Positions 35,523 to 62,634 are shown, numbered from the stretch's first letter. The stretch is DNA of 64,000 nt from a bacterium (GCA_963663405.2 CAXXSM010000004.1:1-64000), one strand, 5' to 3'. The notes: generated from the letters alone by a model not told the origin. Made by a program: numbers and translations.

Positions 35523-35559
35523 TTGAAGTACCAAAAATGATGAAGGAGGTTAGAACACA

Positions 35560-36164: not shown

Positions 36165-36201
36165 GTCACAAAAAAAACCAATCAAAGAAAGGAAAAAAGA
36201 T

Positions 36202-36438: not shown

Positions 36439-36494
36439 TCTGCTCTCAATCTATGAACGAATGATTTCGGGCGTAAAGCCCGCAAACGAACAAA

Positions 36495-36518
36495 CCCGGC
36501 AATTGCCGGGATTTTTTT
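36495..36518 (+). terminator. Palindrome plus U-tract
   Basis: CCCGGCAATTGCCGGG followed by ATTTTTTT. Confidence 0.55.
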
Positions 36519-36538
36519 CATTAGAAAGGAGAAAAAAT

Positions 36539-39510: not shown

Positions 39511-39553
39511 CCTGCAACAAATAACCATTCTGTTTTTGAAAGGAGATTTATCA

Positions 39554-40021
39554 ATGGGTAACTCTGTCCAAAATCCGCCCTGTTTCGCCCTGTTTGACCC
39601 CATCACACCGGAATGCGCGAGCTGTGGTATCCAAACCGATTGCATGCGTGAACAAGAGAAACATCTCAGCGATCCTGATTCGTACCAATGTCAATCCAGT
39701 GTGAAATCGCCGGAAACATCGAATCCAAAGCCAACAAGAAAGGAGAAATTACCTGCAAAATATCAAGTTACCAGTTCTGGAGATGAGCAATACATCCCCG
39801 AACACACCCGCAAACCGTTGGAAATCCCACCGGTTGGTTCAACGATTCAAACCACCTACCGGGGCCAGGTTTACGAAGCCGTCATCGTAGATGATCCATC
39901 CAACAAACGCTCTGACGGTCGATCCATCCTGTTCAATGGAACCGTCTATCGAACGCTGACAGCAGCAGCGCACGCCATTGCGCCTGGAATCAATTCCGGA
40001 TCGGTCTGGCAAGAAATCTAA
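39554..40021 (+). CDS. Cys-cluster plus RAMA/DUF2924-like DNA-binding protein
   Basis: CF......EC..C.....C; YRGQVYEA...FNGTVYRTLTAAA....NSG..W. Confidence 0.6.
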   Translation: MGNSVQNPPCFALFDPITPECASCGIQTDCMREQEKHLSDPDSYQCQSSVKSPETSNPKPTRKEKLPAKYQVTSSGDEQYIPEHTRKPLEIPPVGSTIQTTYRGQVYEAVIVDDPSNKRSDGRSILFNGTVYRTLTAAAHAIAPGINSGSVWQEI

Positions 40022-40042
40022 AAAACCAGAAAGGAAAATATC

Positions 40043-40393
40043 ATGAATAATAACGGCAGTAAAACAACAAACGCAAAATCGAACCGTAACGTTGGCCGAG
40101 GATTACGCGATATCCTGACCGAACAATCAATCTTTGATAGCAATTTCAATGACCTGCAAGAGCATGTCAAAGCAGCACGTATCGGAGCGGCAATTCTCGA
40201 ACTGATCGATATCGTCGAAGCAAAGTATCAAACTGTCATCTTCAAAAGCGTCGCCGCCTATCGCTCTGTATCAGAGCAAGAAACTACCGAAGAGATCGGA
40301 CGGAAACTTTCTGAATTGGAACGTCAACGCATTCATCGTGAAACAGAAAACCAGAAGCCAAAACGGCGATGGTATTTTCTGTATTTGCGCTAA
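40043..40393 (+). CDS. Hypothetical protein
   Basis: AAAGGA RBS; co-oriented with operon. Confidence 0.6.
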   Translation: MNNNGSKTTNAKSNRNVGRGLRDILTEQSIFDSNFNDLQEHVKAARIGAAILELIDIVEAKYQTVIFKSVAAYRSVSEQETTEEIGRKLSELERQRIHRETENQKPKRRWYFLYLR

Positions 40394-44298: not shown

Positions 44299-44308
44299 GT
44301 TTTAGATC

Positions 44309-46952
44309 ATGAAGAAGAAATCCGTATTCAAGACTGATTTCGAATGTAACTCGCATACTACTGATCCAGAATCTCTCTTCCGTGACCTGCGCGGTCGTTC
44401 GCCTGTAATCAGACACCTATGGTCGCATCAAGCCGACATTCTGAGGGCCTATTATAAAAATTTCAAGAATTCAAAGGACGTGGCTATCGAACTCCCAACA
44501 GGCGCAGGAAAGACACTTGTCGGATTACTCGTCGCCGAATTTCGACGACAAGCCGACAGTGAAAGGGTCGCCTATCTGTGTCCGACACGCCAGCTCGCAC
44601 GACAAGTTGGCACACAAGCGGCCATGTATGGTATCAGAGCACACGTTCTCATAGGGAAACAAAAAGATTACCCAAAGAAAGAAATTAGCGAATTCCAATC
44701 CAGCAAAGCAATTGCAATTACTACCTACAGCGCTATCTTCAACTCTAATCCGCGCATCAATGATGCACAGGCGCTCATCCTGGACGATGCCCACTCTAGT
44801 GAGAATTACATCGCATATATGTGGTCTGTTGAGATTAATAGAAGCGATAACGAGAGTCTCTATAAGGATATAATTGGACTATTTAAAGAAGGATTACCAG
44901 ACTCCTTTTACGCTGATATTTACAATGTAGATGATACTGATAGACGAAGATCAGATTTGATTGAGCTCGTACCTGGTATGTATGTCAGGAATTATGTCTC
45001 CGCCCTTCGAGATTTACTCGATAACGGTATAGAAGAGGATACGTCATCATGGTATGCATGGGAAATTGTGAAGAAACACTTACACGCTTGCGGTGTTTTT
45101 ATTTCGTTTAACTCGGTTTTGATTCGTCCGTTTATTCCACCTACTCTCACTCACTCCGCATTTACTCATGCAAACCAAAGAGTCTACATGTCCGCCACCC
45201 TTGGCGCTGGAGGTGAACTAGAGCGTATCACAGGAGTAAACTCTATTAAACGGTTGTCTATACCTCCCGGTTGGGATAAGCGCGGTAGTGGGCGGCGTCT
45301 ATTCCTTGTTCCACAAGTATCGTTGTCTGATGAGGAGGCAATGGAAATTATAAAGGGCGCTGTCACCGTTGTCGATAGAAGCCTTATACTCACTCCCAAT
45401 TATTATGAATCGGAACCATTTATCAGTGAATTGAAAAGAAAAGACCAAACTATTCTTGGGGCGAAAGACATCGAAGATTCGATCGATTCGTTTTCAAGCA
45501 AGAAGAATGCTGTTCTAATTCTATCTCGCTATGACGGCTTAGACCTTCCTGATGAAGCGTGTAGATTGCTAATCATCGGTGGATTGCCCAGCGGGATGAA
45601 CCTTCAGGAGAAATTCTTATGGTCCAGAATCGCAGCATTCTCATTGCTGCGAGACCGTATACTCACACGATTTACACAAGGCGTGGGGCGTTGTACCCGT
45701 TCTGATAACGATTTCTCTGTGATCTTCGTATTAGGTCGTCCTATGGTAGATTTCATTCTTAAGCAGGAAAACCGACGCATCCTCCACCCGGAACTTCAGG
45801 CGGAACTTAAGTTCGGAATCGAAAATAGTAGGGATAAGGAATCTGACGATTTTATGCAACTCTTGCAGGAATTTATAGAACAAGGTGACGATTGGAAGGA
45901 AGCTGAGGGAGCGATCGTCAACCTACGAGAGCAAAGTTCTCGGTATGCCGATCCCATTTCGGAACGACTGTCCTCTATAGTCAGTGATGAGGTGTCTTAC
46001 CAGTACGCGCTGTGGAATGGTAATTACGAAGACGCCTTGGTCTCAGCCCAAACTGTTGCAGACGCCCTAGGTGGCGATGAAACTAAGGGCTATAGAGGCT
46101 GGTGGTATTACCTTACAGCTGACGTTGCCCTGGCACTTCACGAAACAACTGGAGAAGACAATTTCCTTAATAAAGCCAAAGACTGTCTCAAGCGAGCGGG
46201 TAAGTGTTGCTCCGCAATTAGCTGGTTTGCCCGTTTAATCGCGATTGGCTTCCGAAACTACTGATGCGATCGAGATAGATGAAATCACGGCTCTCGCCAT
46301 TGAGAATATACGCGCAAAATTAACTGAATGGGGTACAACAGGAGAACAATTTGAGAGAATAATCTCTCAAACAATTAAAGACCTTCAGGCAAAAGAACAC
46401 AAGCAATTCCACTGCGGTTTGAAATCGCTTGGAGAAATGCTTGGTTTCAACGCTGAGGTACCTAATGGTACCGGTGATCCAGATTGTGTGTGGTCAATCG
46501 GAAGCGATATCCACATAGTTCATGAAGCAAAATCCGACCACACGCCTAATGATCCTATAGGGATCAATGATATACGGCAGGCCCAAAGCCATGAGGCATG
46601 GGTGCGAGAACATTGCACATGTAACAAAGAAACACAGATTTTACCAACCATTGTAAGTCCTCGGACTATAGTAGACGAGAAGGCTCTAGTATACGCCAAT
46701 TCTCTCACACATTTTCTTCCGACGCAGATGAAGGTTATCTTTGAAGAGATCACGAATGTGATCCGTCGAGTGCGCGCCAGCGCTCCCAGCATGAGTGATG
46801 AGAAGATAATGGAAAGATTGTATCGTGATGTTAAGACCGAAAAACTGACACCGCACGACATCTTAAAACGTCTATCCACGGAGCCTGTAAAGAAAATGAC
46901 TTCAGAAAAAAAAACAGAAAGAATGCATTGTGACCAATGGAAAAAAGACTGA
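44309..46952 (+). CDS. DEAD/DEAH (DinG-type) helicase with C-terminal PD-(D/E)XK-like domain; +1 frameshift at ~46237
   Basis: LPTGAGKT, DDAH, MSAT, DGLDLPDEACR, QGVGRCTR; PDCVW...HEAK in 46245..46952. Confidence 0.8.
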
Positions 46953-49900
46953 TTGAAGATTACCTGCCGATCAAGGCGATCAGCGCTGAGGCGTCTCGTG
47001 AGAAATCCGTTCGCAAAGGGCATATCTCCACGCTTCATCTTTGGTGGGCGCGGCGGCCATTAGTGGCGTGCCGCGCTGCTGTTTATGGGGCGTTAGTACC
47101 CGCGTCACAGTTTGTACCAGAAAATGGGCCTGATAATAAGAAACAATCGCTTGGACGTGCAAACGCAGCGAAGTTCGTTACGGAACTCTGCAAGTATCCG
47201 GGAGCGCCACATACGATTCAGAAAGCGCAGTCTCACATTCTATCTGCCCATGCCGAACGCCTTACTCATGAATTGGTAAGGGCGAAAGAAACATCTGAGT
47301 GGCCAGGATGGGTTGAAGAATTCAAGTGGGATAGAGAAAAGGAGAAGGTTACGACTGAAGATATCGTAGAAGGCCGCGCCCCGCGTCCGCGTGTACTCGA
47401 TATGTTTGCGGGCGGCGGTGCGATTCCGTTGGAAGCGTTACGTCTTGGGTGTGAAGCGTACGCTCTCGATCTCAATCCCGTTGCGCACATTATTCAGCTG
47501 TGTACTCTCGTCTACCCGCAGAAATACGGTATGCCGGATCCGAATGCCCGTGGTATGACCGGCCCTAAAGGCGCTGATGGAAAGCCAACTTGGGGTGGTC
47601 TTGCGAATGAGGTCCGTTACTGGGGTAAATGGGTACTTAAAAAAGTCAAAGCCGAAATCGGCGACCTCTATCCTCTCATTCCAGATCCTGATTTCAAAGG
47701 CCAACGCGATGTAAACCCAGGGGAATTGTTCCAGATGGACAGTGAAAGGAGTAGTGCCACCTGGATACTTGATGCCCGTCGCTTATCTCTGGACGCGCAC
47801 GGTTAAATGCAAGAATCCATCATGTGGCGCTACTGTGCCATTGGTTAAAGCAGACTTGGCTCTGTAAGAAAAAGGGCCGATATGTCGCCATGAAGATGGT
47901 ACCGGAGATAAATTCAAAACTGGTTCGTTTTGAAATAATCGAAGTAGTGAATGAAAAGGAAATTGGATTTGATCCATCAGTTGGATCGAAGGGAGGAAAT
48001 GCTACTTGTCCTTTTTGTGGTACAGTTGCAGATAGCAACTATATAAAAGCGGAAGGTTGCGCTAAGCGAATCGGAGAACAAATGATGGCTGTCGCTTGCA
48101 TCAGTCTAAGAAAGAAAGGAAAGGTTTATCTGGATTTTGATCAGTCTGGTGTCATGTCTATCATTGAAAAAGTCAATAGTCGAATTTCTAAATTATGTGC
48201 TGAAAGCGGTATAACTGTACCTGAAGAAACGATCATTACTGATGCGAAAAATAGTTGTTGGACACACTTGTATGGTCTAACAAGTTTTGGAGAGCTGTTT
48301 ACTGACCGACAATTGCTTTGTTTACTTACGGTTGCAAATGCAATTCGAAAATCGGAACTACAAATAGGATACAATAGTAGTGAAGAGAAATGTAAAGCCA
48401 TTGTAACTTGCCTTGGTATAATTCTTGACCGTTTGGCAGATTTTAATTCAACAGGATGTACATGGAACTACACAGGTGGAAGAGGTGTGCTTCACACGAT
48501 GGCCCGTCAAGCAATCCCAATGACATGGGATTTTGCTGAGACAAATCCATTTAATCCCAATGGGGCAAGTTGGGTATCTGGCATTCAGGATGTACCACTT
48601 TCTTTTGATGAGGCATTAAAAACAGGAAAAGTTCCTGGACGTGTAATACGTGCAAACGCAACACATGTACCACTCGACTGTGGTGTTCTTGATGCCGTTA
48701 TTACTGATCCACCGTACTACGATAATGTTCCTTATGCGGATATTTCTGATTTCTTCTATGTTTGGCTTAAGCGAACAGTTTCTCATTTATATCCAGAGCA
48801 CTTTGCATCGATTGGAACCCCCAAAAAACCTGAGGCTGTTGCTGACGCAACAAGGCATAATGGTGATAAGAATCGTGCAACAAAAATGTACGAAGATATA
48901 ATGGCTCGTTCATTCCGAGAAGCTCATCGAGTATTAAAACCTGGAGGCCAGATGCTGGTTGTATATGCACACAAAACGACATTGGGATGGGCCACTCTCG
49001 TAGATGCTTTGAGATCATCAGGATTCATTGTGACTGAAGCATGGCCACTAGATACTGAGAGGAGCGGTAGGCTTCGTGCTATGAATTCAGCTGCTCTTGC
49101 ATCGAGTATTTTCCTTATTGCAAAAAAGCGGAGTGAGTTCGATGTGGGAAACTATGAAAGTGAAGTAATAAAAGAATTAGAAACTGTAATTTTAGAGCGG
49201 ATCGATACACTTTGGCATCAGGGGATTTCTGGTGCGGATCTTGTTATAGCGTGTGTTGGTGCCGGGCTTCGTACATTCACACGTTTCTCTAGGGTCGAAT
49301 ATGCTAATGGTGAAGAGGTCCCAGCAGAAAGATTCCTAGCAGAAGTTGAAACTGTTGTATTGGAGACAATACTAAATCGTTTGTCCAAAGAAATAGGAGG
49401 GAAAGGAAATCGTCAACACAGTTTGATGGGAATAGATCCAACTACACGTTTCTATATTTTATGGCGCTATACCTATCGTTGGTCTGAGCTAGACGCAGGA
49501 GAAGCTATTGTCTTTGCCAACGGTACGCATGTAGAACTTGAAGGTCAGGGCTCACTCTCCTCTGGGGCCTGCGCATTAGTCGAAAAGAAGAAAAGTAAGT
49601 ATCGATTGCGCGACTTTGAAGATCGAGGCGAGGACAAGAAACTTGGTTTGCCTATCGACGGAACAACCGCGCCACTCATCGATATCCTACACCGCTCTCT
49701 TTGGCTTATGGAGTATCGTCCCCACAAACTTACCGAGTTTCTACGAGATAGCCGAGTAAACCGCGAACAGATGCGTCTCGTGGCCCAAGCCCTAGCTGGT
49801 CCCGCTCTTAAAGGAAGTGAGATCGGGGATATCTCGCCAACTGGTGAATTAGCCGCTCTTGCCAAGATCACTGCAAACTGGAAAAGCGTTATTGAGGATG

Positions 49901-49977
49901 CCGCGCTGACACCACAAGAGCGAAAGGATCAACGTAGTGGTCAAAAGACCTTGTTCGAAAAAGAGGAGAGCCAATGA
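46937..49977 (+). CDS. DUF1156 adenine DNA methyltransferase; two +1 frameshifts (~47746, ~47848)
   Basis: LHLWWARRPL, DMFAGGGAIPLEA, TDPPYYD; linker PVAYLWTRTVKC.NP.C sits in the intermediate frame. Confidence 0.88.
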
Positions 49978-52877
49978 ATGCAACGATGATTAAGCCGTGG
50001 TTGGAAGTGGTCACTCTTCATCCTGATGTTCTATCGGACGAATTTTCCGAAGACATTTTTGCTCTGGATCTAGGACCATTAGCGGATGGCAATAAAAATG
50101 TGGCTGCAGTCTACCGTGATCCCGAGCATTTTTTCCGGGCATCGTATCTCACTACTGGCCTTAAGTCTCTCCTGAAGGACGTACTTTCACGCCTAAGTGG
50201 TGGCGTAGGCAACCGTGTGCTTAAACTGATTACACCATTCGGCGGCGGTAAATCGCACACGTTGGCGTCGCTCTTTCACGCTTCTAAAAACCGCCAGGCC
50301 CTCGATGTGATCCCAGAGGGCAAAGATCTTCCGAATTCCGGCAAGACAAACATTTGTGTCTTCGATGGCCAGTTTTACGATGCTACCAATGGCAAGAAGA
50401 TGCCTGGAACCGACAAGTACGCACGAACCTTGTGGGGATGGATGGCGTGGTCTCTCGGCGGACTAAAGGGCTACGAAATGTTGTGCAAACAAGACCAAGC
50501 ACGCGTCGCTCCTGGCGGTGATGAGATCCTGGAATTACTTAAGAACGGCCCGAACCTGATTCTTCTCGACGAAGTGCTCAACTATCTTATAAGCGCGGGT
50601 GGTTTGAAAATTGAGCAGACTACGCTCCGAGACGAAACCCTTACTTTCCTACAGCGACTTACCGTGGCTGTTGGCAATACTAATAATACTGCTCTAGTTT
50701 TTTCGCTTCAATCGAGTAAGAGAGAATCCTTAGAATACGTGAATCTTCTCCAAACCGTTGACCACTTAGCCGCTCGCAAAGACCAACGCCGTGAGCCAGT
50801 GGAAGGCAATGAGATCCTATCCGTCATCCAGCGTCGTCTTCTCGGCAAGATTCCCAACGAACCAGACGCTTCTCCCGCTGCGACAGCGTATCAAGAAATT
50901 TTCACACAGATGCGTAGAGCTTATGCTCAAAGCACAGCCGAGGGGAAACAGGCCGAAGAAGAAGGACTGGCTTTGCGGGATCGTGTGCGCGCGTCTTATC
51001 CCTTCCATCCCGCCCTGATTGACGTAATGCGGGAACGCTGGGCCGCGATTCCCGACTTCCAGCGCACACGTGGAGCTTTGCGTTTTCTTGCCGCATGCCT
51101 TCGTACGTCACACCGGGAAGGAAAGAGCAGAACTGTCCTTGGCCCAGGTGATGTGCCAATACATGACGCCGAAGTGCGACTTGCCTTCTTCAAGGAAGTT
51201 GGTCAACAGGCAGACTTCCAAGCGGTTCTGGAACACGATCTTATAGGAGCTAACGCTCGTGCGCGCCGAATTGATGACCGTCGTTCTAGGGAAACACCTT
51301 CAGAAGTGGGCAAACGTCATGCAATGCGGTTGGCCACAGCTATTCTCATGTATTCTTTCGGGGGTCTACGTCGTGAAGGCGCGAATGATATGTTGCCTCC
51401 GGGCATCAGCGAGTCGGAACTTCTCTCTGTCTGCGTTGGCCCTGATTTTGACAGTACAACTGCGCTTGCGTGCCTTAAGGAACTTAAGGAGCAGTGCCTT
51501 TATCTTCACTTCGATGGGGTGCGTTACTGCTTCAAGAAAGATCCTAATGTCACGCTTCTAGTCGAACAAGAAGCAAATTCCGTCGCTCGCAATGAGGATT
51601 ATGTCCGTGCGAAGATAAAGGAAATGTTGGAAGAGCGTCTAGCAGGTCACCATGAGGCTATTGTATGGCCTGTCAAAACGACTGATATTCCGAATGAGGA
51701 TCCAAGATTCTTAATTGCTTATCTACCCATTGAATTTAGTGGGCAACCAAAATCTGTGCAGTTTGAGAAGGCAAAGGAATTCTTTGAAAAGTACGGAGAT
51801 AAGCCGCGCAAACATCGAAACGGACTAGGGCTTGCAGTTCCATCCGATGATCAAATTGAGATACTACGACGATCTGTTCGCTATCTTTTAGCCATCGAAC
51901 AAGTCAAATCAAAGGCCAAGCAGCTTAACCTTACTGACGAGCAAAAGAGTCAATTGCGAGAACGGGAATCCACAGAAAAGGCAATCACAGAATCGGCGTT
52001 TCTTAAGTTATACACAGATGTATGGCTGCCTCGCACGGAATCGGGTGGCATAGACATTGATGCTGTATCGGTGGGTGGTCGTCCTCTTCAGACTACACTT
52101 AACGATAGGAAACAAGCTGCAATCCACGAGCGCGTAATGGAATTGCTTTCGGTCGTCCACAAGCGCCTTTTTGGAAGCCTCGCTCCAACAAAAATTTTGG
52201 AATTGTTCAAATTAGGTGAAGGAGATCAACCTCGTTATGGCATTCGATTATCAGAAGTTGTTGAAGGTTTCTACTCGTTTATCGGGTTTACTCGACTGAC
52301 TTCCCAGGATGTGATCCGTAAATCTGTTGCGCGTGGTGTCAAGGAAGGTATTGTTGGCTACGTATCCGGCATGGTCCCTGAACTTGAGGATAACGGTAAG
52401 TTTAAAATCGCACCGGAACGAATCAGATTTACGGTTAATGTTGCGGATGACGAAATCGATCTGGACACCGGATTCATCATGCTTCCGCATTCTGTACCGT
52501 TACCGAGTCCACAACAAGCCTGCCCGAAATGTGGTAAGTTCCCTTGCGAGTGTGTCGAACCACCAGCAGTCTGTCCCAAATGTGGACATATCCCATGCCA
52601 GTGCCAGAATCCTCAAGTTTGTTCGAATTGTGGCCAGTGGCCTTGCGTGTGTGAAATAATACCTCCCCCCATTCTGGAAACAGAGAAAGTGGTCCAAGTC
52701 TCATTCTCAGCCGATCGAAATGAGCTTTATACGGCCTGGAACGCTGTAGCGAATCTCGCAGATCTTGCTGGCAAGGTTAATATCACGATCCATGCAGAAT
52801 CAGTAGAAGGATTCGATAAGAGTAAACTTCAAAATGGTGTGATGGAGCCTCTTCGGGAGGCGGATTTAATAGAGTGA
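49974..52877 (+). CDS. DUF499 AAA-family ATPase
   Basis: TPFGGGKSH, LILLDE, SYPFHP, FQRTRGALR. Confidence 0.9.
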   Translation: MNATMIKPWLEVVTLHPDVLSDEFSEDIFALDLGPLADGNKNVAAVYRDPEHFFRASYLTTGLKSLLKDVLSRLSGGVGNRVLKLITPFGGGKSHTLASLFHASKNRQALDVIPEGKDLPNSGKTNICVFDGQFYDATNGKKMPGTDKYARTLWGWMAWSLGGLKGYEMLCKQDQARVAPGGDEILELLKNGPNLILLDEVLNYLISAGGLKIEQTTLRDETLTFLQRLTVAVGNTNNTALVFSLQSSKRESLEYVNLLQTVDHLAARKDQRREPVEGNEILSVIQRRLLGKIPNEPDASPAATAYQEIFTQMRRAYAQSTAEGKQAEEEGLALRDRVRASYPFHPALIDVMRERWAAIPDFQRTRGALRFLAACLRTSHREGKSRTVLGPGDVPIHDAEVRLAFFKEVGQQADFQAVLEHDLIGANARARRIDDRRSRETPSEVGKRHAMRLATAILMYSFGGLRREGANDMLPPGISESELLSVCVGPDFDSTTALACLKELKEQCLYLHFDGVRYCFKKDPNVTLLVEQEANSVARNEDYVRAKIKEMLEERLAGHHEAIVWPVKTTDIPNEDPRFLIAYLPIEFSGQPKSVQFEKAKEFFEKYGDKPRKHRNGLGLAVPSDDQIEILRRSVRYLLAIEQVKSKAKQLNLTDEQKSQLRERESTEKAITESAFLKLYTDVWLPRTESGGIDIDAVSVGGRPLQTTLNDRKQAAIHERVMELLSVVHKRLFGSLAPTKILELFKLGEGDQPRYGIRLSEVVEGFYSFIGFTRLTSQDVIRKSVARGVKEGIVGYVSGMVPELEDNGKFKIAPERIRFTVNVADDEIDLDTGFIMLPHSVPLPSPQQACPKCGKFPCECVEPPAVCPKCGHIPCQCQNPQVCSNCGQWPCVCEIIPPPILETEKVVQVSFSADRNELYTAWNAVANLADLAGKVNITIHAESVEGFDKSKLQNGVMEPLREADLIE

Positions 52878-53116: not shown

Positions 53117-54528
53117 CGTAAGGTCAAAAAACTCGAATGACAATCAAGTTCTTGTAGAATGCAGACTTGAGATCGGAATTTTGAATAAATCTTGATCGAG
53201 CGTGATCCAGTCTTGTACAGTTTTGGTATGTTTCGGTCGTGAAAAGTCAACAATAGGCGGTTTGGTGGACAGACTTTCGGAATGGCTTAACTGAAGTAAA
53301 GCGCATTACGCTGCATCGCGGTAATAGTATCGTAACATACCACCGAGACGCTCACGAGATTGTATGTCACCTGAAATTCTCCCGATTTCTTCACCGGGAT
53401 CAATGATATGGTTATTCAGGCCTTGGTGGTTTCTTTCATGATGATAATGAGCAAGGAATTCGCGAACCGCATTACGCAGGGAACGGGCGCCAAAGAAAAT
53501 CATTCGGTTTAAACATTCCTCTTTTAAGGATCTATGATATCTCTCCAAATGGGAATTCAAATTCGGGCTCCGCGGTGGTAAACGGACCGGCTTCACACCG
53601 GCGTCTTTCAACAATTTTCTAAAAGCCGGACAGAATATCCCATCCCGATCCATGAGCACATAACGCATGCCATTGAGAAATCCATCTTCGGCGTCGGTTA
53701 GATTTCGTCCGATTTGCTTCATCCACGCTTCCTCAGGATTGGAGACACAACCAGCGAAATGAACGCGCCTTGTCTTGAGTTCCATCACGAAGAGCAGGTA
53801 GATGGTAATCAACCCGCCTATTGTCCAGATCTCAACCGTCGTAAAATCAATGGCGGCTAAAACGTCCCAATGAGCTTGGATAAATGTGGACCATGTTGTC
53901 TGCTGCTTGCGTGTCGGCGCCGGTTCGATTCCATGTTTCTGGAGAATATTGCCGACACTTTGATCCGAAATGTCATGACCAAGGTTGGCCAGCGCGCCTT
54001 GAATCCGGTCATAGCCCCAGGTGGGATTTTCTTGGGCCATACGGAGAACGAGTTCGATGACCTCTTGTGAGATTGGAGGGCGTCCGATCTTCTGTCGATT
54101 TTCACTATAATTCCATTTCTGAGCCACAAGTTCACGATGCCAGCGAAGAATCGTATCCGGGGTGAAAATTGTCGAGATTTCCTTCAAAATTTTCCGTCCC
54201 AGAGTTTTTCCTTTGACCGCGAGCCGGGCCCGCTGTTTATCGTTGAGTAGAATACGCTTTTTGCCTTGGACTTCGAGGAGTATATCGACCTCTGTCCGCA
54301 GAAACTCGATTACCTGTTGTTGCTCTCGATTTACCCAACCTGCAATGATGAGCAAAAAGAATTGCCATGGCTGTAAAATGAAATTCATCGTATCCCCAGA
54401 TTCAAAGTGGTGTCATAGAATCGGGGTAGGGAAGCGGTATGTCAATGGGCCGAAATCATGGATTTGTAATTTTTCCAAGTCTTTTAATCAAGGGCGGTTA
54501 CAGTTCAGTCGACTTTTTTGACCTTACG
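53117..54528 (-). mobile_element. IS with rve integrase-core transposase and CGTAAGGTCAAAAAA terminal IRs
   Basis: IR at 53117-53140 and 54505-54528, 22 of 24 match. Confidence 0.88.
53306..54388 (-). CDS. Integrase-core (DDE) transposase, IS3/IS481-like
   Basis: ENPTWGYDRIQG, AIDF, MDRD, ERYHRSLKEECL, RLGGMLRYY. Confidence 0.92.
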   Translation of the reverse strand: MNFILQPWQFFLLIIAGWVNREQQQVIEFLRTEVDILLEVQGKKRILLNDKQRARLAVKGKTLGRKILKEISTIFTPDTILRWHRELVAQKWNYSENRQKIGRPPISQEVIELVLRMAQENPTWGYDRIQGALANLGHDISDQSVGNILQKHGIEPAPTRKQQTTWSTFIQAHWDVLAAIDFTTVEIWTIGGLITIYLLFVMELKTRRVHFAGCVSNPEEAWMKQIGRNLTDAEDGFLNGMRYVLMDRDGIFCPAFRKLLKDAGVKPVRLPPRSPNLNSHLERYHRSLKEECLNRMIFFGARSLRNAVREFLAHYHHERNHQGLNNHIIDPGEEIGRISGDIQSRERLGGMLRYYYRDAA

Positions 54529-55454
54529 CCATAGTAGCGGACTTTATGGAAGCCACGGGGGAGCACATGCATCACGAAGCGCCGCAGAAATTCTTCGCCC
54601 CGCATGCGGATAGTTCGCCAATGCTTCTCTTTGAAGGTCTTGTAGCGGAACGTTACGTGGGTATCGTCCATTGCCAGAAGCCGATGGTTGGAGATCGCGA
54701 TGCGATAGACATAGCGCCCCAGGTAATTCAAGATGGCTTTCACACCTTTGCCATACGGTTTGCAGAACGAGTTCCATCCCGTATTCCAGACTTTGGCATC
54801 GATCTCCCGGAAGATATCCGGCTCCGCTTTTTCGAGCCGCTCTTTCAAGCGCCTGCGAACGAGCAAGCTGAGCGTTCCCACATCGAGGAGCCATTTCGGG
54901 TGGCGGAGTTCCATCCAAGAGTGGCCGTCCTCACTCACCCCACCGGCGCTGACTAATAGATGGACATGCGGATGCAAATCCAGATCCCCTCGCCAAGTGT
55001 GCAGCACGGTCAGGATCGCCGGGGTGGCGCCGGCGACCTTTGGATTGCGCATCAGATCCATGACACAGGAAGCCACCGTCGTCATCAGCAACCCATAGAG
55101 AATCTTTTGATGAGCCAAAAAGGCCGCTCGAATGGGCTGGGGAACTGTCACGATCACATGAAAGTAACGGCAGCCAAGCATCTGGTCTTCCCGCTTCTCG
55201 ATCCATTTCCGCATCGCCTGGGAATGACAGGACGGACAGGATCGATTGCCACACCCGTGATACACCCAGAAGTCTTCACCGCAGTCCTGACAGTGATAAC
55301 GATGCCCTCCCAGTTCCGCCGTATGGCAGGCCATGATATCGTGCAGCGCTTTGCGTTGCGACGGCAAGAGACGCTTGCCTTGTTTTTTAATGTAAGCTGG
55401 ACCGAACCGGCGAACCACGTCGCCGAGTTCGAGGTTCGATGAAGTGCAATTCAT
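54529..55454 (-). pseudogene. IS91-like HUH transposase, 3'-truncated by the IS at the RYYG motif
   Basis: CGNRSCPSC zinc finger, LHTW...HPHVH, YLGRY, HVLP.GFHKVRYYG; AGGAGG before ATG 55454. Confidence 0.88.
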
Positions 55455-56315
55455 GATTCCTCCTAACATCAGATCGGCGAACACGGCATTGACACGTTCC
55501 TGCACCTCGTGGCGAAGTGGCTCCGTCAAATGGGTGTAGATTTGGGTGGAACGAAGACTGGAATGACCGAGAAGAATCTGGACGATTCGTATGTTCTCGC
55601 CGCTCTCCAGCAATTTGGTGGCAAAGGAGTGGCGTAGCTGGTGCGGCTTGATGTCGTTTGTCAAACCGATTTCCTCGCAGGCCAAGCGGAACGCTTGACA
55701 GAGTGTCGACGCGGGGATGTGGTTAGAGCCCTTTTGGTTGGGGAACAGCCAAGTGGGATGGTGATGCGTAAACCAGAGTTCTTTCATCGGATCCAGCAAC
55801 GCGGCGGGGAGAGGAACGATTCGCTCTTTGTCATCCTTCCCAATAATACGTAGACACATTTGCTTGGAGTCGATCTTTTTGACCGGAAGCGAGACGGCTT
55901 CACTGGTTCGGAGACCGCATGTGTACATCAAAGCCAGGGCCACCCGATAGGGCGATTTCCTGACGACGGAAAGGAGGGCGCGAACCTGGGAATGGGTTAA
56001 TGGATGTGGCAGACGCTTTTGGCGGGGCTTGCGAATCTTTTTTTTGCAAACAACGGCCACCCCAGATCCAACGTGGTTTGATAGAGAAATTTCAGCGCGC
56101 TGTAGTGAACCTGAAACGTTCCGAGAGCGACTTTCTTCACGTCTCGCAATTTCAGTAAATAAATCCGGACGAGTTCCTCGCTAATGCATTCTGGCGAGCA
56201 ACCAAATTCTTGGGCGAATGAGGCGATGGCTCGGACGTATTCTTTTTGCGTGCCTTCGCTCAATCCTGCTAACGTCATGTCTTCGCGCAACAGTCCTCGG
56301 AATTCTGTTTCACCG
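55455..56315 (-). CDS. Tyrosine recombinase of the IS91-like element, split at an A8 run (56038-56045); 5' end uncertain
   Basis: SAM-like N-domain in 55997..56386; GLRTSE, HQLRHSFAT, LLGH, Y in 54498..56060. Confidence 0.82.
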
Positions 56316-57002: not shown

Positions 57003-57482
57003 ATGCCCTCAACAAAAGACCATCAACACGCTGCATTCACGCAGAATTTCATCGAGGCGATGAAGAAACAACAATACTCTTTGGTTGGCTGTGAGATCAT
57101 GTACAACCATTACGGGGATCGGGGCGTAATTGATGTTGTACTTCGCAAAGATTATGTGGACCAGAAACGATCGACATGGTTGATCTGTGAAATGAAACCT
57201 CGGCTCTACGATATTGGTGAAACCATCCGGCAAGTTCACCGGGCGGAGGAATATTTCTGTCGCGCGCGGCCGGATATGAAGATGCAAGGTTGGGAGAATG
57301 AATATCGTTTTATCCTGGTTCTAGAAGCGGATAAGCAGAATCTGCATCAAGTCCAATGTCAGCACAGGGATCTCTTTGCTGGGATTGATGTGATGTATCA
57401 CCACAGTGATTCTCATCAGATCGATGCAATTGAACGTATGAGTGAGATCATGAATGCGATTTTGACCGTGCAAAACCACTGA
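57003..57482 (+). CDS. PD-(D/E)XK nuclease-like protein
   Basis: E....YGDRGVIDV...ICEMKP....GETIRQ. Confidence 0.65.
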   Translation: MPSTKDHQHAAFTQNFIEAMKKQQYSLVGCEIMYNHYGDRGVIDVVLRKDYVDQKRSTWLICEMKPRLYDIGETIRQVHRAEEYFCRARPDMKMQGWENEYRFILVLEADKQNLHQVQCQHRDLFAGIDVMYHHSDSHQIDAIERMSEIMNAILTVQNH

Positions 57483-57494
57483 TTTACTAACCCA

Positions 57495-58742
57495 TCAAAT
57501 TTTCGTTTGATCGATATCCAGCAAGCTAATTCTCAAAATTTTCTTCTCCAAATCCTGAATCCGCTGGGCGATCAAATAGCCTTCTTTCTTCCAGACTCTC
57601 GCTATTCGAATTTTCTTGAGCGCTTCCTCTATTCTTCCAGTCAGAAGATTTCTCATGGAATCACGCAACGATTGATTGATCGCGATTTCCCGATTCTCAA
57701 TCCTCGTTTCTAACTCCTCGATTTCCGATTCCAATCCAACCTTTTGTTGTTCATCCAGTATTTCTTTTTTCAATTTTCTTCGTTCTTTAAGACTCATTTT
57801 TTCCATCAATTGGCGCTGTTTTGCAGAAAACAGACTGGAATCCAGAGCCAGGAGACGTTCATTAAGTGTTTTGAGAGAATCCAGTGATTTCTTCAAATAG
57901 CGGTTCGATTGAAACGTCATTTGTATTTTCTGAGCGAGCAAGGATCTTGCCCGGGGATTTGCCCCATAATGTTGAATGGCAGAATCCAGTTCATCAAACG
58001 ATGCCTTTGTCTCTTTCATATTGGACAGCATTTTTTTGATTCCTGGAATACCGAGTTTCTTCAAAGAGTTCGCTTCAGTAGCTAATTCTTCATTTGGGAT
58101 TCGATTGAAATGATTTTGGGAGAGTTTGCGTAATTTGACCTTCAGAGTTTTATCCGGATTCCTTACACTCATCTTTGCAAGCGCTTTCAGCAGAAAAACA
58201 AGAAATACGATTACAAGAAAAGGATATAGAAAGGGATTGATTGTACTTGATAAGTCATACAAGTTAGGATCGATGGTTGTGACCACCAACATCGTCACAA
58301 TCAATGTCAAAAGAAAAGAGAGAATCGGATTCATTTTCAAATACAAAAAACTGTGATAGACCATAATCCCAAACAGAAACGTTAAAAGGACGATCGCCAC
58401 CGTTCCGAATGAAGAAAGAGTAAAGTGATATTTCTTTTCCACAGAGATCATGGAAAAAGCCAATGCCAATCCAATCCCCAAACTGACCGCCCTGCCCGCT
58501 CTACCCGGAAATTTCTTTCGGAGACTGAAATGAGCGATTCCAATAAAGACAAGAGCAAAGACGAAAAAATCGATGACAGTGGAATAACGAAGATAAACAT
58601 GGGTTGGATCAAAGATGGTTTCCCATGGAGTCAAAGCAGAAAATCCATTGGGAATCGACGATCTTGTGATTACCCACGCGTGATGATCTATCCCATTTGC
58701 GATTCGATTTCCAATCATGGATTCATATTTGTTCCTACTCAA
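57495..58742 (-). CDS. Membrane protein (~5 TM) with C-terminal coiled coil; start uncertain
   Basis: Hydrophobic helices in the N-half and a charged helical C-half; divergent from cdc6. Confidence 0.75.
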   Translation of the reverse strand: MSRNKYESMIGNRIANGIDHHAWVITRSSIPNGFSALTPWETIFDPTHVYLRYSTVIDFFVFALVFIGIAHFSLRKKFPGRAGRAVSLGIGLALAFSMISVEKKYHFTLSSFGTVAIVLLTFLFGIMVYHSFLYLKMNPILSFLLTLIVTMLVVTTIDPNLYDLSSTINPFLYPFLVIVFLVFLLKALAKMSVRNPDKTLKVKLRKLSQNHFNRIPNEELATEANSLKKLGIPGIKKMLSNMKETKASFDELDSAIQHYGANPRARSLLAQKIQMTFQSNRYLKKSLDSLKTLNERLLALDSSLFSAKQRQLMEKMSLKERRKLKKEILDEQQKVGLESEIEELETRIENREIAINQSLRDSMRNLLTGRIEEALKKIRIARVWKKEGYLIAQRIQDLEKKILRISLLDIDQTKI

Positions 58743-58782: not shown

Positions 58783-59038
58783 GAACTGTGAGAAGATTTC
58801 TCATGGAAACTTATTTTCGGTTGTGATATGTATGAAAAAAAATTGGATTATTGAATGTATGTTTTTGTTTTCTATATAGTAAGTAATAAAAGAAGTAACA
58901 ATTAACTTATTTTATAATTACGTTCCACAGGAAATCTTCCCTTACAGTTCTCTGTTTTCACTCTTTCAGGACAAAAGAAGATTTAAATAGTAAAAGGCTC
59001 CTTCCTATGCAGCATGAGTCAGAAGATTTCCTATGGAA
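58783..59038. promoter_or_regulatory. Candidate Orc1/Cdc6-type replication origin: inverted ORB-like boxes around an AT-rich spacer
   Basis: AGAAGATTTCTCATGGAA 58791-58808; inverted TTCCACAGGAAATCTTCC 58923-58940; AGAAGATTTCCTATGGAA 59021-59038; spacer about 20% GC by hand count. Confidence 0.65.
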
Positions 59039-60285
59039 CCGGTACATCTACCTCGACAGCGAGCACAGAATCCCTGATACAAGAAGCGTTTCTCCATATC
59101 GAAGACAAGAAAATCACGCTGAATCCTTCCTATCTCGATGACGAAAAACTGACGGAATCCGAACGGGTGACGGTTCTGCAGGAGATCTTTCAGCGCAATA
59201 TCCGCCAGCAACAACTGCATCGATTGGCCAAATACTTGTCCCCGGTGCTCGCCGGTGATTCGCCGGCCAATCTCCTGATCTACGGCCCTTCCGGGGCGGG
59301 CAAATCGGTCACCTGCCTACATTTTCTCAACGCTTTGGCTTCCATGTGCGGCGTCAAACAGATCCAGTTTCAGTATTATTATGTGGATCTCACCACTCCG
59401 AAAACTTGTTTTGGCGCCTTGAACGAGCTGGCCTTATCCCTAGATGGGACTACCAAACGGTACCGTAAGGGCATCGCGCTGGACCAGATGCAGGAGACTG
59501 TCATCCGGGCGCTGACGGCCCGCCATGATCTGGTCTGCATTGTGGTGGACGAGGTCGACAATATCACCTCCAACAGCGATCTCTTTTACACATTTTTAGC
59601 CAAAACCTTGCCCAAACGGATTCCAGTCCGCCTGTTTTACCTCTTGTTGACCAACCGGATCGAATGGGATAAAACCCTTGATCCCCGAATTCTCTCCGTG
59701 CTCAAAAAGACGGATATCATTTTTGAGCCCTACGACGCTATGGATCTAATTGAAATCTTAAATCTCCGAGTGGAGAAAGCCCTCGACACCCGGAAAGTCG
59801 ATCCCGCGGCGATCCGGAAAATCGCCGCGTACGCGTCACGGGAGAATGGCGACGCGCGCAAAGCCATCGAGTTGCTGGTCAAAGGAGTCAAAATCGCCGA
59901 AGATTCGACCGGTTATTTAGGCGTCCGTGAAGTGGACGAAGCGGATTCCTTGCTGGAGATCGACAAAACCGAACAGTTAATCCACGCTCTCGCGCCTCAG
60001 CAGAAATGCGCTCTCTTAGCCTGCTATACAGGGTTGCAAAACTCACGAGAAAAACTCTGGACCGGGCCCGCCTATGATATTTATCGATCCATTTGTGACC
60101 GGCGGAATGTGCGAACACTCACGCAGCGGCGGTTCTCCGATATCGTCAGTTTTTTGGATATCTACGGTTTGATCAACGCCCGGGTGATCTCAAAGGGGCG
60201 CTACGGAAAAACCCGGGAGCTGTCTTCCTCTCTCCCAGAAAAAGTCGTTCAGAAGGTCTTCAAGACCTGCGAACAGAATCTTTAA
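59014..60285 (+). CDS. cdc6: Orc1/Cdc6-family AAA+ replication initiator
   Basis: NLLIYGPSGAGKS, VVDEVD, LDPRI.S, FEPYDA.DL.EIL..R, GDARKAIELL, and wHTH TQRRFSD....L...GLINARV.SKGRYGKTR. Confidence 0.9.
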   Translation: MSQKISYGTGTSTSTASTESLIQEAFLHIEDKKITLNPSYLDDEKLTESERVTVLQEIFQRNIRQQQLHRLAKYLSPVLAGDSPANLLIYGPSGAGKSVTCLHFLNALASMCGVKQIQFQYYYVDLTTPKTCFGALNELALSLDGTTKRYRKGIALDQMQETVIRALTARHDLVCIVVDEVDNITSNSDLFYTFLAKTLPKRIPVRLFYLLLTNRIEWDKTLDPRILSVLKKTDIIFEPYDAMDLIEILNLRVEKALDTRKVDPAAIRKIAAYASRENGDARKAIELLVKGVKIAEDSTGYLGVREVDEADSLLEIDKTEQLIHALAPQQKCALLACYTGLQNSREKLWTGPAYDIYRSICDRRNVRTLTQRRFSDIVSFLDIYGLINARVISKGRYGKTRELSSSLPEKVVQKVFKTCEQNL

Positions 60286-60521
60286 TCGTTCATTACCGGA
60301 AACAATGAATGTTCCATTTTCTCAATGGTTCGTAAGGTGGACCGAAGAGTGGTTTCTTCGAACCGGATCTCTGATGAATTCTTTTGAGGATTTCGGTGTA
60401 ATTTATTTAAGCGATTGCGACTCGCATCAACCATATTGCGCAGATCTCTGATTCTCTGAATAGTAATCCAATCCAGTGGTTCACTCACTAAAAAAGTCCG
60501 GTCTTCAAAGCAGGGATTCAT
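60282..60521 (-). CDS. Hypothetical protein
   Basis: ATGA-coupled to 60518..60826. Confidence 0.55.
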   Translation of the reverse strand: MNPCFEDRTFLVSEPLDWITIQRIRDLRNMVDASRNRLNKLHRNPQKNSSEIRFEETTLRSTLRTIEKMEHSLFPVMND

Positions 60522-60826
60522 GGTAGACGGTTAGGGATCGATGGATGGGGAGGAGACTGTGTCGGCTGATATCCTGACTCTGGTTTCTTGAGTATGAGCA
60601 CCTCATAAGACTTTTTAAGAACCAGGATCGCCTTGGGGATATCATTGATATCAAGCCGGTGTGTGCTTTTAAAATGACCGCTTTCATCCTTGTAGATCCG
60701 TTCCACCGCGACTTTCGCGCTGGTAAACGATTTACCATCGGTGGATTGATGTGGATTCATCCAGATAGCGGCGCGAACCGCCCCGGCTTTAAATTCCATC
60801 TCCGGTTTAGCGGCTATTCCATTCAT
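60518..60826 (-). CDS. Small putative ssDNA-binding (PC4/whirly-like) protein
   Basis: P...FKAGAVRAAIW.N...V.VERIYKD..G.FKST..L..NDIPKA.LVL.K.YE; function inferred. Confidence 0.6.
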   Translation of the reverse strand: MNGIAAKPEMEFKAGAVRAAIWMNPHQSTDGKSFTSAKVAVERIYKDESGHFKSTHRLDINDIPKAILVLKKSYEVLILKKPESGYQPTQSPPHPSIPNRLP

Positions 60827-60981
60827 GGTTCATCACCGTATTCCGGTTGTCTTTTGGGCGTGAATCGCCGTTTACAGGATTTGCATTGGCGAATTCGAAC
60901 GCTTCCTTCTTTCAATTTACGATAGCCCCGCCAAATAGTGTTTGACGATGAACAATAAGGACATTCAAATAGTTCTTCCAT
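60823..60981 (-). CDS. 52-aa zinc-ribbon protein (InsA-N-like), absent from the ORF track
   Basis: MEELFECPYCSSSNTIWRGYRKLKEGSVRIRQCKSCKRRFTP; GGTGAT upstream; ATGA overlap with next gene. Confidence 0.7.
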   Translation of the reverse strand: MEELFECPYCSSSNTIWRGYRKLKEGSVRIRQCKSCKRRFTPKRQPEYGDEP

Positions 60982-61078
60982 ACTTGATCACCTGTAAAAC
61001 AATAGGTCTCGACATCTATATAAACCTTTCGTTTTTCCAACCGAAACATCTATATGCTTTGCGCATATCCTCAATAAC

Positions 61079-61852
61079 ATGATCATTACACGAAGGAATC
61101 CAAATCCTCTGATTGCGGCGATCGATCGTGTTCACGATCGAGTGACAACAATCCAGACCATTGCGCGGAATTTTTACTTGGCAGTGCTGCGGATGCGCTA
61201 CCGGTGCCCCCACTGCGGCCAAAAAATGAAGGTTCACTCTCCTACGACATGGCGATGTTCCTGTGGCGTTCAACTCGATCCGACAATCGAGTTTCAACCA
61301 AGCCCCTGTTGCAAAGCCAGGTTAACGAAGAAAGTGTATCATTACGTCTGTACGCAATGCGGCGCTGCGGTTCCGTCCAAATTTCTCTTCGATGAAAGGC
61401 TGTTCGACGCGGACTATTTCAGAGAGCGGATGAAAGAATCACGGGAACGGAAACAACAACTCCGGGAGAGGCTGAGAAAACAACTTGCTGATTCCCGCTC
61501 GAAAGAACTGGAATTGGAGGATTATCCCCAATTGGACACCATCCCAGGATTGGAACAAGATTTAAACCGGTTGATTGGAACCGAATCGGGGAATGATGTG
61601 TTTGCGTTTAATCGTTCGGAGACGTTCTGCATGACCGATTATCACCGAGCCATTTCCACTCTTGTCAACCAGCGCGGTGTGCTCTTTTCACAAATCCCCG
61701 CGTTGCATCCTTCCACACCGAAGGATCGAATCTGGCGGTTTATCACCTTGATTTTCATGGAACATGACCGGGAAGTCCATTTGCGGCAAGAGGGGGATGA
61801 TATCTGGGTGTTCAAACGGGATTGCGATGAAGAGATCGAAAACCTTAAATAG
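61079..61852 (+). CDS. Multi-zinc-ribbon protein with ScpA/kleisin-like C-terminal winged helix
   Basis: CPHC, CSC, PCC, CTQC; C-terminal RIWRFITLIFMEH..EV.L.Q...DIWV. Confidence 0.65.
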   Translation: MIITRRNPNPLIAAIDRVHDRVTTIQTIARNFYLAVLRMRYRCPHCGQKMKVHSPTTWRCSCGVQLDPTIEFQPSPCCKARLTKKVYHYVCTQCGAAVPSKFLFDERLFDADYFRERMKESRERKQQLRERLRKQLADSRSKELELEDYPQLDTIPGLEQDLNRLIGTESGNDVFAFNRSETFCMTDYHRAISTLVNQRGVLFSQIPALHPSTPKDRIWRFITLIFMEHDREVHLRQEGDDIWVFKRDCDEEIENLK

Positions 61853-62219
61853 AACATCTATCCAAGAGATAAATGTGAAACTAACACAAAAGGATTTGGA
61901 GTTTATTCAACGGTTGAAAGGTCTGTTTGAGGAGAACGATCTGTCGATCGAGCTGAAGCAGACCGATCCGAAGACGTTGGTGTTGCGAAAAAATTACGGG
62001 ACGAAAATAGAGCGCGCGTTTGGCATGACGCGCCAGGGAATCCGATGGAGGTTCCAACGGTTATTCAATGATATTTACGTGAACGCGTATACAACGATCT
62101 ATTGGTTAGAATCCAATTTTGGCTCATACCTACGATCTCAGGCGCTTGAAATCGCGAAAGAACGAGTGACATTACGCAAACGAGTCAATCATGCCAATCA
62201 ATCCTACCGCCCCAAATAA
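61827..62219 (+). CDS. Hypothetical HTH-containing protein (alternative GTG start 61875)
   Basis: IERAFGMTRQGIRWRF. Confidence 0.6.
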   Translation: MKRSKTLNRTSIQEINVKLTQKDLEFIQRLKGLFEENDLSIELKQTDPKTLVLRKNYGTKIERAFGMTRQGIRWRFQRLFNDIYVNAYTTIYWLESNFGSYLRSQALEIAKERVTLRKRVNHANQSYRPK

Positions 62220-62220
62220 A

Positions 62221-62634
62221 ATGGCTTCGACAAAAATCGAGATCAATCACAACACGATAGCCCGGTTAGAATCCGCGGATGAGTTGGCGAGAATTCTCTT
62301 TCCAGATAACTCTAATCATCAAAAGATTTTTCTATCGATCTTTGTGGAACTGAAATGGGCCAAGGATCAGTTCTTGCCGGTCCTGGATCCCATCGTGGAT
62401 CAACTGGGACTGAGCCGCCGGAGTTTGGAAACGGTTCGCGCCAAAATGCGGCGAATGGGGCTGATCGATCATGTCTCCCGGTTCAACAAAACCTACGGCT
62501 ATCGGGAAGGCTGGGTGTTTTCAAACAAATTTCCCCGGGCCTTAGTGAAAGTGGCCAATTTAGTTCTAAAATTCCGTGAGAAGAAGGATTCCGTCCAGGA
62601 ACAGAAAGAAAGGGATCTGATATTTTACCTTTGA
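62221..62634 (+). CDS. Winged-HTH protein
   Basis: IVDQLGLSRRSLETVRAKMRRMGLID. Confidence 0.65.
   Translation: MASTKIEINHNTIARLESADELARILFPDNSNHQKIFLSIFVELKWAKDQFLPVLDPIVDQLGLSRRSLETVRAKMRRMGLIDHVSRFNKTYGYREGWVFSNKFPRALVKVANLVLKFREKKDSVQEQKERDLIFYL

Follow-up and report, generated by a model that had tools for sequence, protein, structure and literature searches.

The window analysed here, the first 64,000 nucleotides of contig CAXXSM010000004.1 (GCA_963663405.2; positions 1-64000), comes from a bacterium and carries near its right end an Orc1/Cdc6 initiator gene (cdc6) next to six small open reading frames (ORFs) in two divergent groups: p52, p102 and p79, read leftward, and p257, p151 and p147, read rightward and called the trio below. 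The trio is a unit, its genes are real and conserved, and the region is probably the maintenance core of a family of bacterial elements that are integrated and probably transferable. We consider the chances about even that this core combines an archaeal-type replicon with a divergent gene set whose trio has a kleisin derivative as its first protein. The C-terminal domain of p257 resembles that of kleisins by fold, profile and model, and a candidate archaeal-type origin, newly found here and going beyond an earlier note on this DNA, lies beside cdc6.

The C-terminal domain of p257 resembles that of ScpA

The structure of p257 was modelled with AlphaFold2 from a 45-sequence alignment and obtained a predicted local distance difference test score (pLDDT) of 85. 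In this model, a helix (residues 10-40) is followed by two zinc ribbons with near-invariant cysteines (C43, C46, C60 and C62; C78, C91 and C94), a second helix (residues 111-139), a loose linker and a winged helix (residues 185-257). The most conserved segment, FLFDERLFDxxYF, is located just before helix 111-139. Comparison of the model with the Protein Data Bank (PDB) using Foldseek placed the ScpA C-domain chains 4i99_D, 4i99_C, 5h66_C and 5xg3_C at ranks 2-5 (E 0.015-0.026, template-modelling score (TM) 0.62-0.68, root-mean-square deviation (rmsd) 2.8-3.1), the match to 4i99_D having E 0.015, TM 0.62 and an rmsd of 3.1 over 67 columns. Lower matches included the C-domains of the cohesin and condensin kleisins Scc1 (1w1w_E), Rad21 and Brn1.

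A similar likeness was obtained from sequence profiles. When the p257 family was aligned by hhalign with 20 ScpA sequences of the host phylum, residues 104-249 of p257 matched ScpA 160-304 collinearly over 140 columns (P 0.0025), compared with P 0.14-0.37 over 7-54 columns for seven control profile pairs among the families at hand. In this alignment the near-invariant F221 and Q237 of p257 coincide with F274 and Q290, which are invariant in ScpA, and I242 is paired with I297. The helix in the recognition position is hydrophobic in both proteins (WRFITLIFM in p257, VVFLALLEM in ScpA) and, therefore, a contact with protein fits better than a DNA-binding reading. Thus, p257 shares with ScpA (PF02616) the C-terminal winged helix, its long hydrophobic third helix, the matching conserved F and Q, and a collinear middle region; in the model described below it also sits on the Smc head cap, as the titles of the solved ScpA entries would have it. 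Unlike ScpA, it has a helix and two zinc ribbons in place of the N-terminal domain, stays below every family hidden Markov model (HMM) threshold, and is encoded on a mobile element beside two small proteins without detectable ScpB likeness, in a host that has its own Smc-ScpAB.

The structural maintenance of chromosomes (SMC) set of the host itself consists of Smc (contig C23), ScpA (contig C132) and ScpB. A complex was predicted from three chains, namely residues 1-190 and 1010-1185 of the host Smc and residues 175-257 of p257. The p257 C-domain docked on the Smc head cap with a score of 0.76, whereas the best of three controls reached 0.01. Of the solved complexes, 58 of 80 reach the score mark that it passed, as do 2 of 110 mismatched pairs. 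The runs share at least 76% of their contacts, the partner pLDDT is at least 75, and the predicted contacts join p257 residues 214-242, including F221 and Q237, to Smc residues 1144-1172 and 30-35. The score shows that the predictor treats this domain as a kleisin C-domain, that is, it speaks for likeness and not for binding. Taken together with the fold matches and the profile alignment, it upholds the proposal of the earlier note that p257 ends in an ScpA-like winged helix; the further suggestion that the host SMC is engaged agrees with the modelled docking on the Smc head, to the extent that likeness can speak for it.

A candidate origin with archaeal-type boxes beside cdc6

The cdc6 product matches TIGR02928 with 246.1 bits (cut-off 181.3), as well as the Pfam models Cdc6_C, Cdc6_lid and AAA_16/22. 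Its closest solved relatives are Orc1-1 of Sulfolobus (2qby_A, E 1.7e-45, full-length alignment) and ORC1 of Aeropyrum (2v1u_A, E 2.8e-45). Boxes of the form GAAGATTTCCYRTGGAAC, resembling the archaeal origin recognition box (ORB), were found at 58792-58809 (+), 58922-58939 (-), 59022-59039 (+, within the first cdc6 codons) and 57644-57661, four matches against 0.24 expected. The first two are inverted about a 112-bp stretch with a GC content of 19.6%, compared with 46.6% for the window. This box layout is shared by all four copies of the element, and 15 of the 17 genome-wide matches fall in element copies. Inverted box pairs about 160 bp apart are also present upstream of cdc6 in strain NaphS2 (locus L032), a Desulfatiglandales metagenome-assembled genome (L036) and Desulfosarcina variabilis (L060), and Desulfocarbo carries a variant of the pair (L034, L035). 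The origin boxes are, consequently, element-specific and kept across phyla.

The Pyrococcus ORB1 (ATTTCCACTGGAAC) and mini-ORB oligonucleotides given in PMC1904270 have the core ATTTCC-N3-GGAAC, and TTCC and GAA are named there as conserved ORB motifs; the core of the boxes described here is equal to that of ORB1. As in the archaeal Orc1/Cdc6 origins of Pyrococcus, Sulfolobus and Aeropyrum, the initiator gene adjoins the origin, inverted boxes stand about an AT-rich stretch, and the nearest solved initiators are the ORB-binding Orc1-1 and ORC1. Unlike archaeal origins, this one would operate in a bacterial host with DnaA and without MCM, the replicon lying inside an integrated multi-copy element. 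The archaeal flavour of the region is real, and it is located in the replicon, that is, in the Orc1-1-type initiator and the ORB-like boxes, replication from which is predicted. An active replicon would have to depend on a helicase that is bacterial or of another kind.

Two peculiarities were observed in the copy on contig C110. A MITE-like insert of about 501 bp (C110:44409-44910), which is multi-copy and 99-100% identical on at least eight other contigs, lies between the origin boxes, and the Cdc6 C-terminus shifts frame after residue ~399. This copy of the element may be decaying.

Genes and copies of the element

The host is a bacterium, with DnaA on contig C16 and a bacterial 16S rRNA, and its assembly comprises 8.44 Mb in 170 contigs (82% complete). 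Copies were compared by tblastn and blastn across the contigs of this genome, the contig of the window being C4. The whole set of six small ORFs plus cdc6 is found with its order kept on four contigs (C4, C86, C110 and C141), and partial copies of the element are located on C47, C38 and C161. These four in-genome copies bear out the assumption that the genes belong to a cdc6-carrying mobile element. They are 88-93% identical in nucleotide sequence and extend over at least 27 kb; the sequence common to them extends on C4 from 56956 to 83531 or beyond, past the end of the window, and is longer still for C110 versus C141. On its left side the C4 copy is truncated at ~56956, beside insertion sequence (IS) copies. 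End alignments gave no clear att repeat and did not delimit the element ends, and no tRNA target was detected in six element loci.

The cargo includes a MoxR-type AAA+ protein, a CobT-like protein with a von Willebrand factor A (vWA) domain, an ArdC-N domain protein and a HerA/DUF87/TraG-P-loop ATPase. The C110 copy additionally encodes a Replic_Relax protein, a second DUF87 ATPase and, at its left end, an integrase-like ORF (47305-48411), recognised by an N-terminal SAM-like domain, the part scanned. The CobT-like vWA gene of C4 (68247-70128, past the window) is split into two overlapping frames of 269 and 488 aa, and the C110 copy has one ORF of 626 aa (35390-37270). At the left of the shared sequence, the 415-aa ORF has, in our reading by eye of its sequence, membrane and coiled-coil character.

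ORF calling on the window returned all the coordinates of the earlier note, and the tight coupling described there holds (Table 1). The pairs p52/p102 and p102/p79 overlap by 4 nt each, cdc6 and p79 are convergent with a 4-nt overlap, and the leftward operon (p52, p102, p79) is separated by 97 bp from the rightward one, made up of p257 and two small ORFs. The ORFs first listed with 151 and 147 aa stand as genes with shorter products, their labels being kept here: p151 starts at the GTG at 61875, since its homologues begin MKLTxKDK, and p147 at the ATG at 62221, since most of the 120 listed homologues (782 found) have 137 aa. All six ORFs are under purifying selection, with ratios of non-synonymous to synonymous polymorphism (pN/pS) of 0.04-0.63 over the four in-genome copies, and they are, therefore, real genes and not chance frames. 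The values were 0.05-0.06 for cdc6, 0.04-0.08 for p147, 0.11-0.28 for p151, p257, p52 and p102, and 0.29-0.63 for p79.

Table 1. Features of the cdc6 region in the window (coordinates from the first letter of the window)
Feature	Position	Strand	Description
159-aa ORF	57003..57482	+	Leftmost gene common to the copies; 88-90% identical on C38, C141, C47 and C110; no family match
415-aa ORF	57495..58742	-	Common to element copies; one extra ORB-like box inside, at 57644-57661
Candidate replication origin	58792..59039	.	Three 18-bp ORB-like boxes and an AT-rich stretch
cdc6	59014..60285	+	Orc1/Cdc6 initiator, 423 aa: AAA+, lid, C-terminal winged helix
p79	60282..60521	-	79 aa, fast-evolving; outside close relatives in 1/20 loci
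p102	60518..60826	-	102 aa; four strands and one helix, disordered tail; large unnamed family
p52	60823..60981	-	52 aa; CxxC...CxxC zinc ribbon, basic tail; divergent partner of the trio
Divergent promoter region	60982..61078	.	97 bp
p257	61079..61852	+	257 aa; 'hemi-kleisin'
p151	61875..62219	+	114 aa, conserved; HTH-like (helix-turn-helix-like) MTRQGVRWRFQRLF segment; mean column identity 65%
p147	62221..62634	+	137 aa, winged-helix-like; mean column identity 72%

Distribution and neighbourhood of the trio

Relatives of p147 were abundant. A word-index search yielded 782 clusters at E <=0.001, and the 120 relatives listed are mostly 137 aa long and 61-71% identical, none of them with a Pfam domain or an informative name; the corresponding ESM Atlas cluster has 487 members. 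For p257, 60 relatives were found (35-48% identical), one of them labelled Candidatus Hydrogenedentota, and the source of the homologue P0059 names that protein a kleisin. In the representative library, p102 has 814 relatives.

A scan for p147 with one genome per species returned 51 loci from many phyla, including Hydrogenedentota, Thermodesulfobacteriota, Sumerlaeota, Lentisphaerae, Nitrospiraceae, Ignavibacteria, Zixibacteria, Planctomycetes/Phycisphaerae and Anaerolineae; among the Thermodesulfobacteriota carriers are strain NaphS2, Desulfosarcina variabilis and Desulfocarbo indianensis. Every one of the 51 loci is bacterial, which gives no support to the archaeal ancestry once considered for the trio. 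The distribution of the element is patchy in the host phylum (6 of 35 genomes), yet it spans more than 10 phyla overall. No tblastn match to p147 was obtained in PLSDB or INPHARED and no relative was confirmed in IMG/VR, and a virus or plasmid origin of the cassette was rejected on these grounds.

Among the 33 loci with at least 1.5 kb of sequence upstream of p147, p257 occurs in 30, always together with p151, which itself occurs in 32. In the 20 loci that have 8 kb or more upstream and 3 kb or more downstream, cdc6 was present in 11 cases, p52 in 13, p102 in 4 and p79 in 1. From these counts, the trio is a stable core that is often accompanied by p52, and cdc6 is a neighbour that is frequent but can be exchanged. 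In 35 genomes of the host phylum, p147 occurs in 6 and Orc1/Cdc6 in 8 (both in 4, cdc6 only in 4, p147 only in 2), and in the four genomes with both genes these always share one contig, 0.2-1.5 kb apart, or ~1.6 kb in the C4 copy. The co-occurrence with cdc6 that the earlier note expected holds on the element itself and in about half of the related loci, and the link is, thus, a loose one.

A ParA ATPase gene lies beside or inside the trio in seven loci, once between p257 and p151, and six of these seven lack p52, as if ParA and p52 were alternative occupants of one slot. In L060 (7319-8628), L025 and L062 (1148-2310), ParA and then a conserved gene of ~120 aa stand directly before or inside the trio operon. 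Replic_Relax genes near the trio came from seven clustered sources (the C110 copy and six related loci), and HerA-like ATPases near it from 10 (the element of the window and related loci).

The other small proteins

The description of p52 as a CxxC/CxxC protein is accurate (CPYC...CKSC), and its zinc-ribbon matches are weak: PF01096 scored 21.5 bits (cut-off 21) and PF22811 25.6 bits (cut-off 27.2). In the p102 model (pLDDT 87), four strands and one helix form residues 10-79, followed by a disordered tail. The best Foldseek match was Borrelia Pur-alpha (E 0.12, TM 0.23-0.31, rmsd 11.8); VIA-align gave Pur-alpha Z 2.6 and a small SSB Z 3.0, with a maximum of 4.7 for acetyltransferases, which have unrelated folds. 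PC4 or SSB models matched none of 68 family members at E <=0.01, no family was assigned by Pfam, PHROG or NCBIfam, and BFVD gave nothing named. The PC4/SSB label attached to p102 in the earlier note, a guess from topology only, was consequently rejected as unsupported.

The two small partners of p257 had both been called HTH proteins. For p147 this is favoured by weak but recurrent winged-helix matches in its family (18 of 40 members match Rrf2, the best with E 0.0024 and below cut-offs, 5 match GntR, 3 HTH_36 and 3 HTH_28); the p147 of the window matched no family model, and its ESM Atlas lead was HTH_CodY (0.92). For p151 the assignment is not established, with single weak HTH matches in 3 of 22 members, an HTH-like motif seen by eye and nothing in the ESM Atlas. 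Both family profiles returned noise only, and no match, against PDB sequences.

Divergent promoter and ribosome-binding sites

The 97-bp promoter region is near-invariant in three aligned copies (C86 left out), whose synonymous sites differ by 15-33%. It contains GACATCTATAT twice, 34 bp apart, and a third ACATCTAT follows the p257 stop codon (61854-61862). The repeated promoter motif is a possible operator; the ACATCTAT motif alone is not significant (3 matches versus 1.0 expected).

The GGTGAT sites noted previously before p52 and p102 are present in all four genome copies. GGTGAT is rare, being found within 22 nt upstream of the longest-ORF start in 16 of 3779 long ORFs, compared with 266 for GGAGG and 496 for AGGAG. 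It had been taken as a possible sign of archaeal ancestry; however, the motif pairs with the 16S 3' tail of the bacterial host (...GGATCACCTCCTTTCT) and, therefore, says nothing on archaeal descent. Despite its rarity, GGTGAT was rejected as an archaeal mark. Shine-Dalgarno use is low genome-wide, and cdc6, p257, p151 and p147 have no obvious site.

Neighbouring features of the window

A diverged partial copy of the element (35304-40380) is 77-84% identical to C4 63761-71002 and includes a p87-like ORF (35292-35519) and a CobT-like gene (37631-38794). It lies directly upstream of a defence-island-like region (40783-52877) encoding an SNF2 helicase with NOV_C, a DEAD/Helicase_C_2 helicase, and DUF1156, methylase-like and DUF499 proteins. 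SNF2-NOV_C helicases are also located near the trio in L043, L055 and L058. Further right, a phage-integrase domain and the IS91-type domains Zn_Tnp and Y2_Tnp are joined in a single 520-aa ORF (54498-56060). The 1757-bp unit of this ORF (54529-56285) recurs at least 15 more times in the genome, with 88-90% identity, and directly adjoins the C4 copy of the element at its truncated left end.

Proposed role of the core and alternative explanations

The proposed core would have two parts. The first would be the replicon, with the Orc1-1-type initiator encoded directly downstream of the origin and inverted ORB-like boxes about a putative AT-rich unwinding stretch. The second would be the divergent set, in which p52 and two accessory proteins are read leftward and the strongly conserved trio rightward. 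In the trio, p257 would combine two zinc ribbons with the kleisin middle region and C-terminal winged helix, without the N-terminal domain; p147, with its winged helix, and p151 would bind element DNA; and p257 would couple them to the SMC ATPase head cap, here modelled with the host Smc. In this way, the element may recruit the SMC complex to itself, or block it there, leading to segregation or resolution of element copies or to escape from SMC-based restriction. To recruit or block the SMC complex, the anti-defence variant included, is in our judgement the likeliest role of the trio and has about the same chance of being right as of being wrong; plain transcriptional regulation is the main rival. 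The DNA targets, the binding and the biological outcome are what we infer.

Several results weigh against this proposal. The first Foldseek rank for p257 went to AF1382, which is no kleisin, and no match had E <0.01; VIA-align, which compares shape only, gave the p257 C-domain Z scores of 8.9 with SelB, 8.7 with DsrD and 7.1-8.0 with kleisins, all within about 2 units. The hhalign probability of the p257/ScpA match is just 12%. PF02616 had no match in p257 at E up to 1, and the genome search with this model at E <=0.01 retrieved the host ScpA (C132) only and none of the four p257 copies. Searches of p257 with Pfam, NCBIfam and PHROGs returned zinc-ribbon noise only, and PDB sequences searched with the p257 family profile likewise yielded noise only and no kleisin. 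Since p257 has no counterpart to ScpA 1-159, the neck-binding N-terminal domain of kleisins, it could not close an SMC ring canonically. The docking result may be memory, because like ScpA-C/Smc-head complexes are already solved (4i99, 5h66 and 5xg3). The idea that p147 and p151 are kites found no support, their profiles showing no ScpB likeness (P 0.37 and 0.16, respectively, against a 9-sequence ScpB profile). No SMC is encoded among the element ORFs scanned, and 9 of 20 trio loci have no cdc6 within reach. As for the replicon, no MCM was found in the 82% complete genome: the best PF00493 match (30.5 bits) covers partial AAA+ cores, matches of that kind occur in all of the 14 control genomes (10 bacterial), and the element contains none of those in the host genome. 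Helicase loading by Orc1, consequently, has no obvious route.

Plain regulation would make the trio and p52 ordinary transcription regulators, for instance repressors of transfer or excision genes, with a DNA-binding p257 C-domain whose kleisin likeness is generic. We consider this somewhat unlikely. It would agree with the many DNA- or RNA-binding winged helices that VIA-align places at or above kleisins, with the lack of any kleisin HMM match, with the recurrent Rrf2, GntR and HTH_36/HTH_28 matches of the p147 family, and with the position of the genes on both sides of a conserved divergent promoter with a repeated motif. However, the recognition-position helix of p257 is hydrophobic and not basic or polar, the alignment with the ScpA profile runs 80 columns past the winged helix with coinciding conserved residues, and the docking score far exceeds its controls, with the memory caveat given above. 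Moreover, a mean column identity as high as that of p147 across phyla is unusual for an element-specific repressor.

The same likeness would also serve a kleisin mimic, in which p257 poisons Wadjet/JetABCD, MksBEFG or the host Smc-ScpAB by capping the head and leaving the ring unclosed, as an anti-defence measure on entry. The retained middle and C-terminal kleisin parts without the N-domain, the modelled docking on the head cap and the ArdC-type anti-restriction domain on the same element point in this direction, and one example of a mobile-element protein that inhibits an SMC complex is already known, namely the viral DNA mimic acting on MukBEF described in PMC7617805. Nevertheless, we regard such poisoning as improbable: the head modelled was that of the host Smc, the literature searched contained no paper on a kleisin-mimic inhibitor, and constant co-transcription with two putative DNA-binders, together with the ParA adjacency, fits recruitment better. 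Least probable of all, and in our view hardly likely, is the main suggestion of the earlier note, that Cdc6 is assisted in replication by the small genes, which would supply, for example, a helicase adaptor, an origin remodeller or a protein that binds single strands. The small genes do adjoin cdc6 and the origin in each of the four copies, as well as in 11 of the 20 related loci, cdc6 and p147 stay close in the genomes of the host phylum that have both, and a genome without MCM would need some adaptor to a bacterial helicase. On the other hand, the trio often occurs without cdc6, cdc6 occurs without p147 in four of eight genomes, two of them assemblies of 8-9 contigs, p102 has no detectable SSB or PC4 likeness, and p102 and p79 are found in so few loci. 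Of the interpretation in the earlier note, membership of the element and the kleisin-like winged helix are supported; the cdc6 link is loose, and the PC4/SSB part is unsupported.

Discussion

Chromosomes are folded by SMC complexes, which in the form of Wadjet or Mks systems destroy plasmids. MukF, MksF and JetA of Wadjet are the kleisins of SMC-like systems, encoded in kleisin-plus-partner operons that act on plasmids or chromosomes. The trio can be likened to these systems by description; in contrast to them, no SMC or nuclease gene accompanies it in the loci examined. Loading of Smc onto bacterial chromosomes by ParB-parS is described in PMC4536313. In a comparable manner, a DNA-bound adaptor encoded by the trio would bring condensin to a specific site for segregation, and ParA adjoins the trio in seven loci. 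The trio showed no ParB likeness. ParB, for its part, does not belong to the kleisins and is not known to bind the head cap.

No mobile-element protein imitating a kleisin subunit was found in the literature searched, nor was any description of bacterial Orc1/Cdc6 elements or of the trio cassette; since coverage was partial and without supplements, this is not proof that they are unpublished. A wider picture, possible and in our opinion doubtful, is one of widespread integrated bacterial elements with an archaeal-type origin in MCM-less hosts and a hemi-kleisin that, with two DNA-binding partners, captures the host SMC head and thereby loads condensin on the element for segregation or disarms SMC-based restriction of plasmids. 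If this is true, p257 would be the first mobile-element-encoded kleisin derivative acting on a host SMC complex.

An Orc1/ORB replicon working in bacteria, if true, would make the coupling of an archaeal initiator to a bacterial helicase directly testable, and cultured carriers exist, for example Desulfosarcina variabilis and Desulfocarbo indianensis. The trio is abundant in many bacterial phyla and has neither a Pfam family nor a name, and a role for it would annotate a large block of 'hypothetical' environmental genes.

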